In this document: piece by piece, positions 53,739 through 63,133 of the stretch
Layout of the letters: each line of letters starts with the position of its first letter
Position numbering within the stretch: position 1 is the first letter of the stretch
Assembly: GCF_058153355.1 (NCBI RefSeq)
Contig: NZ_CM177019.1
Reading direction: 5' to 3' (one strand)
Length of the DNA: 64,000 nt
Notes under the pieces: model-generated
Database searches by the model: none
What the model was told of the DNA's origin: nothing
Seen by the model: the letters and a program-made list of their open reading frames with translations, nothing else
Translations under genes and position numbers: made by a program

Positions 53739-54053
53739 TTTGGGGCCATTTTGACTCATAGAGGAAAGCATTACGCACGAACTTTCTTAGTTTATTATTT
53801 GGATTTATATTCTATTAATACATTATTTTATAGATTTTTATATTGAACGCGGTGGTTTTTGGAGAGATGAATGAGGAAGTTGCTTCGAGACACAGAAACG
53901 TTAGCTTTACCTATAGCGGAGGTGATGTGAAATTAATTTATAAGAGAAACAATTTACATATCAAACAGTTAGTTGCTTTATGTCGTTTTTTTATATTTTT
54001 ATGCTTGAGAACAAATACAAAACTTTTTTATGATATGGACAGTTTGGCCCCAA
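53739..54053. promoter_or_regulatory. fimS: fimS invertible phase-variation switch, bounded by 9-bp inverted repeats
   Basis: TTGGGGCCA at 53739-53747 and exact reverse complement TGGCCCCAA at 54045-54053, 315 bp end to end, between fimE and fimA. Confidence 0.9.
54005..54035 (+). promoter_or_regulatory. Candidate sigma70 promoter inside fimS (probable fimA promoter), directed toward fimE in this sequence
   Basis: TTGAGA-18 bp-TATGATA on the plus strand, about 10 bp inside the fimE-proximal inverted repeat. No comparably good -35/-10 pair was found on the minus strand at the fimA-proximal end. Confidence 0.5.
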
Positions 54054-55174: not shown

Positions 55175-55777
55175 CTATAAAACAGCGTGATGCTGTCGTC
55201 CTCTGGCTCTATCCCAGATGCCGTAAAAACGCCCTGCATTGCTGGCGGTATACCAGACAGTATGACGAATATTGCGATGCCCAAGATAATCCTGGATAAG
55301 TCGTGTATCTATTCCCATATTCGCCAAAGCAAAACCACACGAATGGCGTAACATATGCGGATGAATCTCCAGTGATAACCCAGCATTACCACCAGAAGTC
55401 GAGATAATATGGTAAAACTGTTGCCGAGAAAGCGGGTTCCCCTTACGTGATAAAAATACCCACTCGCTCTCAGCATGCGGATAAGAAGTACGTATACTCA
55501 ACCAGTTTTTTAAAGCCTGAACTTCTTTGTTCAATAGCGGGTGCGTTGTTGAAAAGCCTTTTTTTAATCGATGGATATAGATACACTTTGCCTTAAGATC
55601 AATATCCGAAATCCTCAATCGACAAATTTCACTCGCCCGGAAACCATGAATAAAACAAAGCAAAGTCAGACAATAATTACGTGCTGCATGAGGCCCGGTA
55701 TTTGCTGCTTTAAGGAGTGACTCGATTTCACTATGGGTCAGGAAGTTCCTTTTTTTGTTATCAGCCTTATTCTTCAT
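55175..55777 (-). CDS. fimB: Tyrosine recombinase (bidirectional fim switch)
   Basis: 200 aa; paralogue of FimE (HPHMLRHSCGF...LGHRNIRHTVWYT). Confidence 0.97.
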   Translation of the reverse strand: MKNKADNKKRNFLTHSEIESLLKAANTGPHAARNYCLTLLCFIHGFRASEICRLRISDIDLKAKCIYIHRLKKGFSTTHPLLNKEVQALKNWLSIRTSYPHAESEWVFLSRKGNPLSRQQFYHIISTSGGNAGLSLEIHPHMLRHSCGFALANMGIDTRLIQDYLGHRNIRHTVWYTASNAGRFYGIWDRARGRQHHAVL

Positions 55778-56801
55778 CGTTTTCCCTTATAATTACAGAC
55801 GCGCACTAGCTGTGCTGGGTTAGCAATAATCCAACATTTTAATCCTGGTTATGTTTATAAAAGCGAACGTTTGCTTAATAACTAACGTAAGTGGACCAGT
55901 TCTTCTGAGTGAACTAAAATGGAGTAGCGATAGTTACTTATAATAACTTTGCCATACAAACGCCATGCTCTTGCATGCTATGTACCCTTATATATTTATC
56001 AATCTGATACGAATCTAATAATAACCCTCATCATTAATGCAACTAATCTTATCTATATATCATGTGATATGTTCTGTAACAAGTAAAATCAACATAAAAA
56101 ATTCAGCAAAATTTAATATTCGTTCAACTAGCCGTCTCACATATGACATTATTAGTCAACTGCATTTGCCACAAAATGGCTATTTCATGGAACGCAGTAA
56201 TTTCTTAGCGTCTATTATCATGCTAATTCTTAGGTCCCTAGCGATTATTCCTGCCTGGTTCGTCAGCTTACGCCATGAGATTGCTACATTCCTTTTTATC
56301 CTGGAGATATGGGGGAACGCAGGCGACGCTTTTTCATCTACATTCGTTGGTAAATATGGCTTTGGTCACTACGACTTAAACCTTCCTCAATCACAGCTAT
56401 TCGCCGGGCGATACGGCAAACAAACTAAGTGAAACATCATCCTGAAAACACCAATGCGTACTGAACATCAACAAGCCTCTCCTGATCGACTTCAGAAGTG
56501 ACCAGTTACAAGCCACAAACCTGGAAACATATTTCATGATGAGAATTATGCTCAGCCTGATGGCGGGTAAACACTTATTTTCACCACGCTCACTGAGTTA
56601 GCCAGCAAAGCTCCCCTTGTTTAGAGTGCAAATAAATAACATATAAAACAAATAGTTAATAAAATATCTTTGATTTGTGAAGGCCATCGTAAGTGTTCGT
56701 CTGACTTCACATGGCATCTTCTTCATAGAAAAATATAGACATATTTTGTGACACGAATTGCAAATCTGGTTTTGTTATATGGCTTGTGTGATTTTTGATA
56801 T

Positions 56802-56824
56802 GGTATAACAGGTATAAAGGTGTA
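56802..56824. promoter_or_regulatory. NanR operator (GGTATA repeats) in the fimB-nanC intergenic region
   Basis: GGTATAACAGGTATAAAGGTGTA, three tandem GGTATA-type hexamers about 380 bp upstream of nanC. Confidence 0.65.
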
Positions 56825-57205
56825 CCGAAGTAGTCAATGAGACTGAGCATCTCGCAATCTATGACAAACATCACTTCAGTCTGAAAGGAGTATGAAAATG
56901 AGATCAACAAACTTTCTATTTTATGACTCTGGGTAAAATGGATTGAGTAAGTGATATCGCTTACGAATATTCAAATCAATTAAACATCAGAAGAGATTTT
57001 ATACTCAGGTATTTAATCTGGCCCTCTGTTTATTTAAATAATGTGGAAGAGAATTTTCACAGGAGACCTTATACAAAAAATATAAAATACAGCTACCCGT
57101 TACCAAAGACACTATAAGCCTGGCAAAAAATATTACACAACATAAATGCTAATTGTTTATGCGGGCTTTGTATTGCTTTCTGTATCCTACAAATGAGTGA
57201 AATTT

Positions 57206-57922
57206 ATGAAAAAGGCTAAAATACTTTCTGGCGTATTATTACTGTGCTTTTCGTCACCATTAATTTCTCAAGCTGCGACACTGGACGTACGTGGTGGATA
57301 TCGTAGTGGAAGCCACGCCTATGAGACTCGACTCAAAGTCAGTGAGGGATGGCAAAATGGATGGTGGGCAAGCATGGAAAGTAATACCTGGAATACCATT
57401 CATGATAATAAAAAGGAAAATGCCGCACTCAATGATGTTCAGGTTGAAGTTAATTACGCGATTAAACTTGATGATCAATGGACGGTGCGCCCGGGAATGT
57501 TAACGCATTTTAGCAGCAACGGCACACGCTACGGACCCTACGTAAAATTGTCCTGGGACGCGACAAAAGATCTTAATTTTGGTATTCGCTATCGTTACGA
57601 CTGGAAAGCTTACCGACAACAAGACTTATCCGGTGATATGTCTCGTGATAATGTTCATCGTTGGGATGGATATGTCACTTACCATATTAATAGTGATTTC
57701 ACCTTCGCATGGCAAACGACGCTATACAGCAAACAAAACGATTATCGCTATGCAAACCATAAGAAATGGGCGACGGAAAATGCATTTGTTCTACAATACC
57801 ATATGACGCCTGATATTACGCCATACATAGAATATGACTACCTTGACCGTCAGGGTGTTTATAACGGCAGAGATAATTTATCAGAAAACAGTTATCGCAT
57901 TGGTGTGTCATTTAAACTGTAG
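57206..57922 (+). CDS. nanC: KdgM-family N-acetylneuraminic acid outer-membrane channel
   Basis: 238 aa from MKKAKILSGVLLL with signal peptide; C-terminal aromatic residue pattern of a beta-barrel. Confidence 0.9.
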   Translation: MKKAKILSGVLLLCFSSPLISQAATLDVRGGYRSGSHAYETRLKVSEGWQNGWWASMESNTWNTIHDNKKENAALNDVQVEVNYAIKLDDQWTVRPGMLTHFSSNGTRYGPYVKLSWDATKDLNFGIRYRYDWKAYRQQDLSGDMSRDNVHRWDGYVTYHINSDFTFAWQTTLYSKQNDYRYANHKKWATENAFVLQYHMTPDITPYIEYDYLDRQGVYNGRDNLSENSYRIGVSFKL

Positions 57923-57941: not shown

Positions 57942-59048
57942 ATGAATAAAACAATAACGGCGCTTGCTATCATGATGGCTTCATTTGCCGCAAACGCGTC
58001 TGTATTACCGGAAACTCCGGTGCCATTTAAAAGTGGTACCGGAGCAATTGATAACGACACTGTCTACATTGGTTTAGGTAGCGCAGGTACAGCATGGTAC
58101 AAGCTGGATACACAGGCCAAAGATAAAAAATGGACAGCGTTAGCTGCATTCCCTGGTGGACCGAGAGATCAAGCAACCTCTGCATTTATTGATGGCAATC
58201 TGTATGTGTTTGGCGGCATTGGCAAAAACAGCGAGGGCTTGACTCAGGTATTTAATGACGTACACAAATACAACCCCAAAACCAATAGCTGGGTTAAATT
58301 GATGTCGCACGCGCCGATGGGCATGGCGGGCCATGTGACTTTTGTACATGACGGCAAGGCTTATGTTACTGGCGGTGTTAACCAGAATATCTTCAATGGC
58401 TATTTTGAAGATCTCAACGAAGCTGGAAAAGATCCAACCGCTATAGATAAAATCAACGCCCACTATTTTGACAAAAAAGCAGAAGATTATTTCTTCAATA
58501 AGTTTCTGTTGTCTTTTGATCCCTCAACACAGCAATGGAGTTACGCTGGCGAATCTCCCTGGTACGGGACGGCTGGTGCAGCGGTTGTGAATAAAGGCGA
58601 TAAAACCTGGCTTATTAATGGTGAAGCCAAACCAGGACTACGAACGGATGCCGTATTTGAACTTGATTTCACCGGTAATAATTTAAAATGGAATAAACTT
58701 GCTCCCGTCTCATCACCAGATGGCGTCGCTGGCGGTTTTGCGGGGATAAGCAATGACTCACTTATATTTGCCGGGGGGGCCGGATTCAAGGGGGCGCGGG
58801 AAAATTATCAGAACGGTAAGAACTATGCGCATGAAGGCCTGAAAAAATCATATAGCGCTGATATTCATCTTTGGCATAACGGGAAATGGGATAAATCGGG
58901 CGAATTATCGCAAGGTCGGGCCTACGGAGTATCATTGCCCTGGAATAATAGTTTATTAATTATTGGCGGTGAAACTGCAGGCGGCAAAGCGGTGACGGAT
59001 TCAGTTTTGATCTCTGTGAAGGATAATAAAGTCACAGTACAAAACTAA
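57942..59048 (+). CDS. nanM: N-acetylneuraminate mutarotase (Kelch-repeat beta-propeller)
   Basis: 368 aa from MNKTITALAIMMASFAANA. Confidence 0.9.
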   Translation: MNKTITALAIMMASFAANASVLPETPVPFKSGTGAIDNDTVYIGLGSAGTAWYKLDTQAKDKKWTALAAFPGGPRDQATSAFIDGNLYVFGGIGKNSEGLTQVFNDVHKYNPKTNSWVKLMSHAPMGMAGHVTFVHDGKAYVTGGVNQNIFNGYFEDLNEAGKDPTAIDKINAHYFDKKAEDYFFNKFLLSFDPSTQQWSYAGESPWYGTAGAAVVNKGDKTWLINGEAKPGLRTDAVFELDFTGNNLKWNKLAPVSSPDGVAGGFAGISNDSLIFAGGAGFKGARENYQNGKNYAHEGLKKSYSADIHLWHNGKWDKSGELSQGRAYGVSLPWNNSLLIIGGETAGGKAVTDSVLISVKDNKVTVQN

Positions 59049-59112: not shown

Positions 59113-60093
59113 ATGAACGCAATAATAACGCCCGATTATTACTATGTTCTTACCGTTGCCGGTCAGTCTAATGCCATGGCGTATGGCGAAGGACTGCCAT
59201 TACCGGACAGGGAAGATGCGCCTCATCCCAGGATTAAACAATTAGCGAGATTTGCGCATACGCATCCCGGAGGCCCGTCATGTCACTTTAACGACATTAT
59301 TCCACTGACTCACTGCCCACACGATGTTCAGGATATGCAGGGTTATCACCATCCTCTGGCAACGAATCATCAAACACAGTACGGCACCGTTGGCCAGGCA
59401 CTGCATATTGCACGGAAATTACTGCCCTTTATTCCTGATAACGCGGGGGTTCTCATCGTTCCATGTTGCCGTGGCGGATCGGCTTTTACCGCGGGCAGCG
59501 AGGGGACATATTCAGAACGGCACGGAGCCAGCCATGATGCTTGTCGTTGGGGAACGGATACTCCGCTATACCAGGATTTAGTCAGCAGAACGCGAGCCGC
59601 ACTGGCAAAAAATCCGCAGAACAAATTCCTCGGCGTATGCTGGATGCAAGGCGAATTTGACTTAATGACCAGTGACTACGCGTCACACCCTCAATACTTT
59701 AATCATATGGTTGAAGCCTTTCGTAGGGATCTAAAACAATACCATTCTCAGCTTAATAATATTACTGACGCACCGTGGTTTTGCGGCGATACCACCTGGT
59801 ACTGGAAAGAAAATTTCCCTCATGCGTATGAAGCTATTTATGGCAATTATCAAAATAATGTTTTAGCCAATATTATTTTCGTCGACTTCCAGCAACAAGG
59901 TGCAAGAGGACTGACGAACGCGCCTGATGAAGATCCAGACGATTTAAGCACGGGATATTACGGTTCAGCGTACCGGTCACCGGAGAACTGGACGACGGTA
60001 CTGCGAAGCAGTCATTTCAGCTCAGCAGCCCGTCGGGGGATTATTTCTGACAGATTTGTAGAAGCAATTTTGCAGTTTTGGCGCGAAAGGTGA
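59113..60093 (+). CDS. nanS: 9-O-acetyl-N-acetylneuraminate esterase
   Basis: 326 aa from MNAIITPDYYYVLTVAGQSNAMAYG (SGNH-like GQSN motif). Confidence 0.85.
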   Translation: MNAIITPDYYYVLTVAGQSNAMAYGEGLPLPDREDAPHPRIKQLARFAHTHPGGPSCHFNDIIPLTHCPHDVQDMQGYHHPLATNHQTQYGTVGQALHIARKLLPFIPDNAGVLIVPCCRGGSAFTAGSEGTYSERHGASHDACRWGTDTPLYQDLVSRTRAALAKNPQNKFLGVCWMQGEFDLMTSDYASHPQYFNHMVEAFRRDLKQYHSQLNNITDAPWFCGDTTWYWKENFPHAYEAIYGNYQNNVLANIIFVDFQQQGARGLTNAPDEDPDDLSTGYYGSAYRSPENWTTVLRSSHFSSAARRGIISDRFVEAILQFWRER

Positions 60094-60100
60094 GCGTTCA

Positions 60101-60751
60101 TTAATTTGATTTATTCGCATCCATCAACGCTTTTAACTGCTCCGGCGAAAACGGTGGTTTGCGTCGGTGCAACATCGCATGGCAATTAGGGCACACAGGA
60201 AGCAAATCATTAACTGGATCCAGCTGGTAATCCTCTTTAATGGCTGAAAGCGGCACCAGGTGATGCACATGGATAAAGCCTTCAGCGATATCACCATAGA
60301 TCTTCACCAGATCAACGCCGCATACTTTGCACTGGCATCCATGATGTTCGACCGCTTTATCTCGGGCCTTTTTATCGCGTTCATAGCGGTTTACTGTCAC
60401 CTTTATCGCCGCACCTTCAAGGTATGTCTCCTGCGACGGCAACTCATCCGGGAACAGAACGTCGGCTATGGGAGCCGCAGCGGCTTTATCCTGATGAATA
60501 TGAAATCCCTGCTCTATGAGTAGTTTGACGCATTTAGATTTTATTCCGCCGGTGAAATCCGCAGGGGTAAATTGCGTCCCCGTCATCAATGTCGCTGCGA
60601 TGCCAGCAATCGCCTTCGAGGGGTAACGTCGGCCATGATATTCAATCTCATACAACCGCGCAGGCTGGAACTGATGAGTTTCTCCCGCATCCCATAAATG
60701 GATAGCTTCGATGATATACCGCCGCGGAAGATGATCAGGGAGTTTATTCAT
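60101..60751 (-). CDS. HNH endonuclease with uncharacterised N-terminal putative DNA-recognition domain (candidate type IV restriction enzyme)
   Basis: 216 aa; C-terminal zinc-finger HNH (CQCKVCG...HVHHLVPLS...NDLLPVCPNCH); stop 7 bp from the nanS stop, convergent. Confidence 0.65.
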   Translation of the reverse strand: MNKLPDHLPRRYIIEAIHLWDAGETHQFQPARLYEIEYHGRRYPSKAIAGIAATLMTGTQFTPADFTGGIKSKCVKLLIEQGFHIHQDKAAAAPIADVLFPDELPSQETYLEGAAIKVTVNRYERDKKARDKAVEHHGCQCKVCGVDLVKIYGDIAEGFIHVHHLVPLSAIKEDYQLDPVNDLLPVCPNCHAMLHRRKPPFSPEQLKALMDANKSN

Positions 60752-60830: not shown

Positions 60831-61760
60831 TTGAACAGCAGAAAATTTGCGAGCATGATCGCAATTATTTCACTGCCAGGGATATCAATGGCTTCCAGTA
60901 AATCGCTACAGCAGGCAATTGCCAACATAAAAATCTGGCACAAGGGTGAACAGCGCGCGCCGCATAAGCCATTGTTACTGCTATACGTATTAGCGGGATA
61001 CCTGAATGGACATCCGCGCCTTTTCGATTATGGCTCGGAAATCTACGAACCTCTGCACAGTTTACTGGAACGTTTTGGGCCACAGCGTTCACAGTACCGA
61101 CCTGATATGTCGTTCTGGCGATTACAAGGCGACGGATTCTGGCAATTACACAATGCCGAACTTTGCTCAACAGCAGGGAGTAGCCGACAACCGCCAGTGA
61201 AGGAACTGACCGAACACCGCGTTGCAGGCGGTTTCGATGAACAGCACTATGCCCTGGTAATCGGCAATAAAAAACTCATCAATACCCTAGCGCAACAGAT
61301 ACTCGAAGCGCACTTCACCGAGAGCATTCAGGAAGAAATTGCTGACGAGCTGGGTTTTGATCTCCAGCAAATCCGTAAACAGCGCGACCCGTTATTTCGC
61401 AAAAATGTATTACGCGCTTATAAATACCAGTGCGCGATATGTGGCTTTAATATGCGCCACGACGACACCACCGTCGCGTTGGAAGCGGCGCATATAAAAT
61501 GGAAACAGCACGGCGGTCCTTGTGAAATTCCTAATGGCCTGGCGCTTTGTGCAATACACCATAAAGCCTTTGATAAAGGATCGATTGGCCTGGATGAAAA
61601 TATGCGGGTACTGGTCTCGGATGCGGTAAACGGCGGAGGGATCGTTGAGAAACTATTCTGGGATTTTGACGGGAAAACTATTGCGTTACCACAGGTGCGT
61701 AAAAATTACCCTTTTGAGGGGTTTGTGGAGTGGCATCGAAAAGAGGTTTTTAGGGGGTGA
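60831..61760 (+). CDS. HNH endonuclease with N-terminal modified-DNA-sensing-type domain (possibly sulfur-binding-domain-like; candidate type IV restriction enzyme)
   Basis: 309 aa; C-terminal HNH (CAICGFN...EAAHIKW...CAIHHKAFD); roughly 200-aa N-terminal domain; divergent from the 216-aa HNH gene. Confidence 0.6.
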   Translation: MNSRKFASMIAIISLPGISMASSKSLQQAIANIKIWHKGEQRAPHKPLLLLYVLAGYLNGHPRLFDYGSEIYEPLHSLLERFGPQRSQYRPDMSFWRLQGDGFWQLHNAELCSTAGSSRQPPVKELTEHRVAGGFDEQHYALVIGNKKLINTLAQQILEAHFTESIQEEIADELGFDLQQIRKQRDPLFRKNVLRAYKYQCAICGFNMRHDDTTVALEAAHIKWKQHGGPCEIPNGLALCAIHHKAFDKGSIGLDENMRVLVSDAVNGGGIVEKLFWDFDGKTIALPQVRKNYPFEGFVEWHRKEVFRG

Positions 61761-61822: not shown

Positions 61823-63133
61823 CTAAATAAATTCAGCCCCACTAGGAAAACGCAACTCTGATGTCTGTAAACTCTCGCCAATAAAGAAAGGTACAACCCA
61901 TAAACGTAACCTATTTTCCTTCTGATGGCTAAATTCATAAGGATGAGGAGATGGCTGATTAAATCCGTTATGATAGGGGTATATCAAAATCATATCACCT
62001 TCCCCCTCCTGGTAATTCAATCCATAGGCAAGCATTTGGTAGAGATCGGCTTGAGATTGCTCAAGACTGTCCTTTCTGCCATTAACTATCTTCCATTTAA
62101 CATCACAGGTAATAACTGAACCAGTAGTACTTTTACGAGGCCGTAAACAAATATCAGGCCGCAGCTTAAATAAAGCTTTACCGTTATAACTAATCAGATT
62201 TTTTGAACTTACCTGTGCGTCCACTCGCCATTTATCATAATAACGATAACGCATCCATGTCGTCACAAAAGATTCAAAAACAGCCTCCATCGGGAAAAGC
62301 AGTGAAAAAGCATTAACATCCCCATACATACAGTGTGGAGAATCGCCCAATAAAATCATCTTCGCCCACGCTAATGCTTGCTCATAGTGATGCATTTGTC
62401 TATCAAAGTGTAACTGCTCGAAAGCTATATAAGCATCATGAACTGACGTGATATTTTCAAAGTGAAACTGCAGCTGTGTTATCTGCTGTAATAATTGTGG
62501 ATTACTGGTCTGGCGACTAATCTTATTGATTGCAGTTTTGAGTATCCGGTTTTCCAGACGATTGACGCTGTACTCGTCATACTCTACCTGAAAACGATCC
62601 CGCCTAATACAGTTTTTGCTTAATTGTGCAGAGATCCGTAATCTTCCTTTCATCCATGGAAGATTATCTTCCTGACGTAAATAGTCACGTTTTAACCCTC
62701 TCTGCACAATCTTACGCACGCTCTCTATAAATTGTTGAATAAAGATATCCATCAGAGGCATTTTAGATATTTTGACGCCAGATTCAGAGGAGGCAATATG
62801 ACGAAATGATTTTAACGTACGTAACATCATCAGTAATTGTTGACGAACAGTATCCTCATTATCCTGACCTGTTTTAGGCAGGATTTCGAGAAATCGCCCC
62901 CCTGGCAGTGAGATTACTCCTGCATAGTTTTTTACCTGCAGCGTTTTTACTCCATTCCGGCTGCTAAGGGTGAGCAAACGATGAGTATTATCAGCATCGT
63001 CTTTCAGACAGCGCAGCTCAAGCCATTTAAATAGGTCTGCAGGTAGCACTACCGCATTATTTATACGGGCATCACCTTCCTCACTCACTAAATGCCCGTA
63101 TTCGAACACAGTGAAATGACTGGAAGATTTCAT
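61823..63133 (-). CDS. McrC-like PD-(D/E)XK nuclease subunit of a McrBC-type GTP-dependent restriction system
   Basis: 436 aa from MKSSSHFTVFEY; C-terminal D...DVKWK PD-(D/E)XK signature; ATG overlaps the upstream McrB-like stop (ATGA). The listed ORF start at 63199 is discounted. Confidence 0.7.
   Translation of the reverse strand: MKSSSHFTVFEYGHLVSEEGDARINNAVVLPADLFKWLELRCLKDDADNTHRLLTLSSRNGVKTLQVKNYAGVISLPGGRFLEILPKTGQDNEDTVRQQLLMMLRTLKSFRHIASSESGVKISKMPLMDIFIQQFIESVRKIVQRGLKRDYLRQEDNLPWMKGRLRISAQLSKNCIRRDRFQVEYDEYSVNRLENRILKTAINKISRQTSNPQLLQQITQLQFHFENITSVHDAYIAFEQLHFDRQMHHYEQALAWAKMILLGDSPHCMYGDVNAFSLLFPMEAVFESFVTTWMRYRYYDKWRVDAQVSSKNLISYNGKALFKLRPDICLRPRKSTTGSVITCDVKWKIVNGRKDSLEQSQADLYQMLAYGLNYQEGEGDMILIYPYHNGFNQPSPHPYEFSHQKENRLRLWVVPFFIGESLQTSELRFPSGAEFI

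Follow-up and report, generated by a model that had tools for sequence, protein, structure and literature searches.

A rare allelic form of a probable NanR operator (O_NR) in the control region shared by nanC and fimB

Does the tandem GGTATA array in the long spacer between fimB and nanC act as an operator of NanR, and what would it control from there? A sequence-only reading of the 64-kb stretch of DNA analysed here (hereafter the window) had proposed a triple GGTATA operator at 56802-56824 in a 1.4-kb fimB-nanC spacer, with sialic acid control of nanC and, at a distance, of fimB. Our analysis of the letters, the neighbouring genes and published maps indicates that the site is very probably the NanR operator O_NR of the divergent nanC/fimB control region, present in a rare allelic form. 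The feature itself is already known; the finding reported here is new at the level of the allele only.

The array lies within a 1,428-bp spacer (55778-57205), as the sequence-only reading had placed it, between fimB on the minus strand (55175-55777) and nanC on the plus strand (57206-57922). fimB encodes the type 1 fimbrial switch recombinase, and nanC, the first gene of nanCMS, encodes an outer-membrane sialic acid channel. The operator is 381 nt from the ATG of nanC and 1,024 nt from that of fimB, and its strand (+) is the coding strand of nanC, the downstream sialic acid gene. Next after nanC come nanM (57942-59048, +) and nanS (59113-60093, +); on the far side of fimB are fimE and the 314-bp fimS switch. 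Both 9-bp inverted repeats of the fimS invertible element (TTGGGGCCA; 53740-54053) are present, 314 bp apart. Judging by the encoded proteins, which are identical to those of K-12 at 238/238 (NanC), 199/200 (FimB), 363/368 (NanM) and 317/326 (NanS) positions, the last two without internal stops, fimB and nanCMS are intact. No copy of nanR was found in the 64-kb window; K-12 nanR adjoins nanA, more than 1 Mb from fim, and we assumed that nanR is located elsewhere in the source genome.

We also observed a 131-aa ORF in the spacer (56037-56432, +), antisense to the fimB leader and promoter, and the annotation of some RefSeq genomes places a hypothetical protein in the fimB-nanC spacer. This ORF had no NCBIfam match and, in view of two 1-nt indels that distinguish it from the K-12 sequence, was treated as non-coding; it is unlikely to be a gene. 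An Rfam search of the spacer and of the 381-nt nanC leader at E<=1 returned no match. Directly after nanS lies a probable defence cluster (60831-61760, +; 61823-63199, -; 63130-63993, -); it includes a restriction endonuclease that binds phosphorothioated DNA (NF045808, E = 7e-130), and McrC and McrB were matched there only weakly, below the cutoff. A 216-aa ORF at 60101-60751 (-) had no family match.

The plus-strand sequence at 56802-56824, GGTATAACAGGTATAAAGGTGTA, contains two perfect GGTATA hexamers (56802-56807 and 56811-56816) separated by ACA, followed after AA by a third hexamer, GGTGTA (56819-56824), with one mismatch to GGTATA. NanR operators have been defined as at least two direct GGTATA repeats located 2-3 nt apart (PMC3658417, PMC8012715), and the site presents two perfect hexamers and one single-mismatch hexamer with spacers of 3 and 2 nt. 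We scanned both strands of the 64 kb for GGTATA-N3-GGTATA-N2-GGTATA with up to three mismatches, and the sole match to this triple layout was 56802-56824, with one mismatch. The chance expectation for the layout was 0.03 per window, and any match at all was obtained in 3 of 100 dinucleotide-preserving shuffles. Lone GGTATA hexamers numbered 26 against 20.8 expected; the window is not enriched for them, indicating that the operator signal resides in the arrangement and not in the word. Only one perfect two-repeat site was found in the window, within 56802-56824. The remaining two-repeat matches had two mismatches each, occurred at chance frequency and all lay outside the fimB-nanC spacer, where the two-repeat scan revealed no second NanR site. 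A repeat finder run independently returned two copies of GGTATAA with a 9-bp spacing at the operator. A 7-nt inverted repeat, TGTTATA / TATAACA, was also observed at 56773-56779 and 56804-56810, with its right arm in hexamer 1; it is perfect in the haplotype of the window, K-12 has TGTTGTA, and it may be due to chance.

Comparison with the nanA operator, proposed earlier as a check, gave the same base at 22 of the 23 positions. In K-12, nanA and nanX (yjhB) carry one and the same perfect 23-mer operator, GGTATAACAGGTATAAAGGTATA, from which the window operator differs by a single base, G for A at the fourth position of hexamer 3, both spacers being shared. The string quoted in the sequence-only reading was recovered exactly at 56802-56824, and the description of it as a triple needs refinement, as the third hexamer is imperfect. 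Orientation to the downstream gene is also the same, as is a promoter-operator module of ~55 bp. However, the nanA operator is 36 nt from its ATG, whereas nanC of the window has a 381-nt leader, and the window site would also serve the divergent fimB ~760 bp away, unlike the nanA and nanX operators. The perfect (GGTATA)3 sites of nanA and nanX were reportedly used for NanR footprinting, in work attributed to Kalivoda in 2003. They were also used for NanR EMSA and cryo-EM (Horne 2021, PMC8012715).

Furthermore, in a full alignment of the spacers the window operator falls, without gaps, on the fimB-nanC site of K-12 (GGTATAACAGGTATAAAGGTGCA), making it the positional orthologue of that site. The two copies are identical at 22 of 23 positions and occupy the same locus, in the same orientation and between the same two genes; they share hexamers 1 and 2 as well as both spacers, and the third hexamer is GGTGCA in K-12 instead of GGTGTA. 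They differ as well in the distance from operator to nanC ATG, which is 418 nt in K-12 and 381 nt in the window.

The operator O_NR of the K-12 nanC-fimB region is reportedly the subject of studies attributed to Sohanpal et al. in 2004 and Kalivoda et al. in 2013. McVicker 2011 placed the NanR operator ~760 and a NagC site 'around 470' upstream of the fimB start (PMC3173223), and the SlyA site OSA1 (TTAGCATGATAA) spans -179 to -168 on the same scale (PMC3173223). Using OSA1 as an independent anchor, we re-derived the map positions relative to the fimB start. OSA1 is found at 56215-56226 of the window, corresponding to -168 to -179, which puts the inferred fimB start at ~56047 with a 270-nt leader. 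On this scale the K-12 hexamer triple extends from -744 to -766, in agreement with the published ~-760; the operator has thus not been mapped elsewhere in the spacer, an outcome that would have spoken against the proposal. An 11-bp insertion relative to K-12 (AATGCGTACTG, 56453-56463) shifts the window triple to -755 to -777; with this insertion taken into account, the relation to the fimB start is the same as in K-12.

Two NagC-type sites, assigned as such from motif and position, complete this map. The distal 23-mer, resembling O_NC1 (CATATTTTGTGACACGAATTGCA; 56740-56762, +), is identical to that of K-12, where it lies at -682 to -704, within the published -760 to -470 block (PMC3173223). 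The proximal 23-mer, resembling O_NC2 (CATATTTCATGATGAGAATTATG; 56528-56550, +), is invariant in 10 spacer haplotypes, and its K-12 position, -470 to -492, matches the published 'around 470' (PMC3173223). Both ends of the published -760 to -470 interval are therefore reproduced, which identifies the triple as O_NR. The two NagC-type copies share a CATATTT-N8-GAATT motif and are exactly 212 bp apart, as are the corresponding sites of K-12. An IHF site is reported to lie between the NagC operators.

With the operator as the fixed point, we compared the window with three K-12 modules and with 59 distinct nanA promoters from other species. A TG-extended -10 element of the nanC promoter (TGGTATAAC) is predicted at 56801-56809 (+), coinciding with hexamer 1; the three K-12 modules (nanA, nanX and nanC) and the 59 nanA promoters of other species all show this string in an identical register. 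The nanA promoters and the K-12 modules also share a CRP-like site centred ~46 bp upstream. Its putative counterpart in the window, TGTGACACGAATTGCA (56747-56762, +), aligns with the conserved tgaa...gatc.ca block of the nanA promoters and with TGTGACATCAGTAACA of nanX, so that the module shared with nanA and nanX comprises the CRP-like site and TGGTATAAC; this CRP-like site overlaps the distal NagC-type 23-mer. CRP is said to activate nanC, a result attributed to Condemine in 2005. Transcription of nanC is predicted to start at ~56816, inside the operator. As the array overlaps both the predicted -10 element and the predicted start, bound NanR should occlude the promoter. The site can thus be described more precisely than before as a candidate operator of the nanC promoter overlapping its predicted -10 element. 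A generic scan for sigma-70 -35/-10 pairs did not call the nanC promoter at the operator, and its hits were no more numerous than in shuffles; the promoter may be TG-extended and CRP-dependent, without the -35 match required by the scan.

NanR is a winged-helix repressor of the FadR/GntR family, and its DNA-binding mode superimposes on that of FadR-DNA (PMC8012715). FadR-type operators differ in being a single palindrome occupied by one dimer, whereas NanR recognizes an array of direct hexamers on which several dimers are loaded cooperatively. Three NanR dimers bind (GGTATA)3 in this manner (Horne et al. 2021, PMC8012715). (GGTATA)2 is bound with a KD of 25 nM, similar to that of (GGTATA)3, but forms two complexes only, and a single repeat or lengthened spacers abolish binding (PMC8012715). 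The interaction of NanR with DNA is attenuated by Neu5Ac, and the operator is carried by three operons, nanATEK-yhcH, nanCMS and yjhBC (PMC8012715). The nanC/fimB spacer is a persistent genomic SELEX target of NanR, reflecting binding in vitro (PMC5934670). NanR and NagC both activate fimB, NanR doing so from ~760 bp upstream, and sialic acid lowers fimB expression (PMC3173223, PMC5401889).

By analogy with this system, we infer that the window allele acts like that of K-12. In the absence of sialic acid, NanR dimers would assemble cooperatively on the direct GGTATA repeats and, by covering the predicted -10 element and start, would block transcription of nanCMS. The same complex, ~755-777 bp upstream of the fimB start, would raise fimB expression and thereby favour OFF-to-ON switching of type 1 fimbriae. 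Binding of Neu5Ac would weaken the grip of NanR on DNA, de-repressing nanCMS and lowering fimB expression. The sialic acid control of nanC and, distantly, of fimB put forward by the sequence-only reading is supported by the published repression of nanCMS and activation of fimB by NanR in K-12, provided that control of fimB is understood as activation by NanR that sialic acid removes.

A search for the core TGGTATAACAGGTATAAAGGTNNA in a collection of species-representative genomes revealed 65 loci, 61 of which lie ~60 nt before nanA, all in the same orientation. These nanA-linked copies were found in Enterobacter, Citrobacter, Kluyvera, Raoultella, Buttiauxella, Rahnella, Hafnia and other genera, and nanC-linked copies in this collection were confined to Escherichia. 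Among 10 divergent E. coli spacer haplotypes, 56802-56818 was invariant (0/17 columns), compared with 56 variable columns out of 261 in the surrounding region. Hexamer 3 varied in four of its six columns, occurring as GGTGCA, GGTGTA, GGTATG or GATGTA in these haplotypes and as GGTACA in one further genome. It is the only part of the nanC/fimB operator that varies within E. coli and, on this alignment, the part that evolution constrains least. In the 61 nanA operators, hexamer 3 was GGTATA in 43, GGTACA in 15 and GGTCTA in 3, only positions 4 and 5 being informative here because the search pattern fixed GGT..A. Occupancy by three dimers is uncertain at the window operator, as GGTGTA deviates from the consensus and hexamer 3 is poorly conserved. 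We also observed the E. coli fimB-nanC operator region on a 3.3-kb contig, CAUHML010000277.1, that is assigned to an 'uncultured Bacteroides sp.' MAG and encodes a FimB 100% identical to that of K-12; mis-binning of an E. coli contig is the probable explanation.

The spacer that carries the operator is ~95% identical to that of K-12, with several indels, unlike the flanking proteins, which are 99-100% identical. Among 5,086 complete RefSeq E. coli genomes carrying the spacer, 5,065 were only 90-95% identical to the spacer of the window, and no complete RefSeq E. coli genome matched the E. coli-like window closely, the best reaching 98.1% over the spacer and 98.9% over 22 kb. Most E. coli genomes share 95-99% identity with this 22-kb stretch but only ~93-95% with the spacer. 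On these identities, the spacer of the window is a distinct, rare minority haplotype. A 34-bp deletion relative to K-12 in the nanC leader (junction 56871/56872), located between two CACTTCAG direct repeats, accounts for the shortening of the distance between the operator and the nanC ATG, and is common to the minority haplotype group that includes LR-58-1, EC42405 and 2017-02-2CC. The 11-bp insertion falls in the stretch from the proximal NagC-type site to the fimB promoter; since 11 bp is about one helical turn, the phasing of the distal operators to the fimB promoter would be roughly kept.

The window allele also differs from K-12 in a Dam site. The flank 1 nt before hexamer 1 reads GATA (56797-56800) in place of the GATC of K-12, giving GATATGGTATA in the window compared with GATCTGGTATA in the K-12 nanC, nanA and nanX operators; no GATC is thus found immediately 5' of hexamer 1. 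In K-12, NanR binds within 5 bp of GATCs at nanA, nanC and yjhB, and a role of methylation in NanR control has been hypothesised, not demonstrated (Westphal et al. 2016, PMC5155068). Four of the six K-12 GATCs of the fimB-nanC spacer are missing from the window, among them the one flanking the NanR operator and the one next to the distal NagC-type site (56733-56738); the other losses are at K-12 spacer offsets 878 and 1268. We counted alleles by megablast with exact 30- or 32-mers in 5,426 complete E. coli genomes. The K-12 type, GATC flank with GGTGCA, was found in 4,746 genomes, GATC with GGTGTA in 23, and the window allele, GATA with GGTGTA, in none of the 5,426; irrespective of the third hexamer, the counts were 4,642 for the GATC flank and 10 for the GATA flank. 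The window allele was likewise found in no species-representative genome.

The 10 genomes with the GATA flank carry it on an unrelated, K-12-like spacer and include several rodent isolates (EC93, MP1, LI60C3 and EcWJ). This background, seen in EC93 and 1919D3, indicates that the change arose or was transferred at least twice, and EC93 also lacks the GATC on the NagC side, through a different substitution. GATC was found in just 26 of the 61 nanA copies of other species, so that NanR operators do not generally carry it. The last letter of the flank, A in the window, is C in 60 of these 61 nanA operators, which makes an effect on binding or promoter strength possible, if as a minor and unproven lead; the substitution could weaken either.

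Could the hexamer array be a product of chance or a purely promoter-related sequence devoid of NanR function? A plausible extended -10 element falls on hexamer 1, so that conservation could partly reflect the promoter. However, a triple layout is expected far less than once per window even when three mismatches are allowed, the near-complete match to NanR-bound operators extends to non-promoter positions and to both spacers, and NanR binding in the K-12 spacer has been published (PMC3173223, PMC5934670). This explanation is effectively refuted for K-12, and we consider it extremely improbable for the window. A more serious question concerns stoichiometry: only hexamers 1 and 2 may bind NanR specifically, hexamer 3 being a decaying remnant, such that two dimers and not three would occupy the site. 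The variability of hexamer 3, next to 17 bp that never vary in the 10 haplotypes, points in this direction, as does the binding of (GGTATA)2 by NanR with the affinity of (GGTATA)3 in two complexes only (PMC8012715). Yet GGTGTA of the window is one step nearer the consensus than the majority GGTGCA, the GGTACA and GGTCTA tolerated by nanA operators of other species indicate that variation need not abolish binding, and a third dimer could be recruited to an imperfect hexamer through cooperativity. Two-dimer occupancy is thus a genuine but minority prospect, and it would leave the identity of the site as a NanR operator unaffected.

It is also conceivable that the operator controls nanC in the lineage of the window but that long-range control of fimB has been altered or lost there, through the GATC losses, the 11-bp insertion or the ~5% spacer divergence. 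The minority status of the spacer, with its indels and its four missing GATCs, would be compatible with such a change, and fimB is activated in a distance-dependent way that is poorly understood (PMC3173223, PMC5401889). Nevertheless, O_NR, both NagC-like sites with their exact spacing and the SlyA site OSA1 are all kept, the insertion amounts to about one helical turn with phasing roughly preserved, and FimB and the fimS switch are intact; a role of Dam methylation in NanR control is itself undemonstrated (PMC5155068). We therefore regard altered control of fimB as unlikely. Slightly less likely still is that the rare allele is adaptive, having lost the Dam sites beside the NanR and NagC operators while hexamer 3 moved nearer the consensus. 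If it were, sialic acid and GlcNAc control of nanC and fimB would be uncoupled from Dam methylation, or NanR occupancy would be changed, and the occurrence of GATC-to-GATA on two unrelated spacer backgrounds and in several rodent-gut isolates would reflect selection.

Read as O_NR, the site would tie host sialic acid, a signal of inflammation, to the uptake of sialic acid through nanCMS and, via fimB, to type 1 fimbriae. As this link was established in K-12 two decades ago, the operator described here only confirms that the annotation is correct. At the level of the allele, these observations suggest that some natural lineages, that of the window among them, can do without the Dam site that previous work paired with every NanR operator of E. 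coli.
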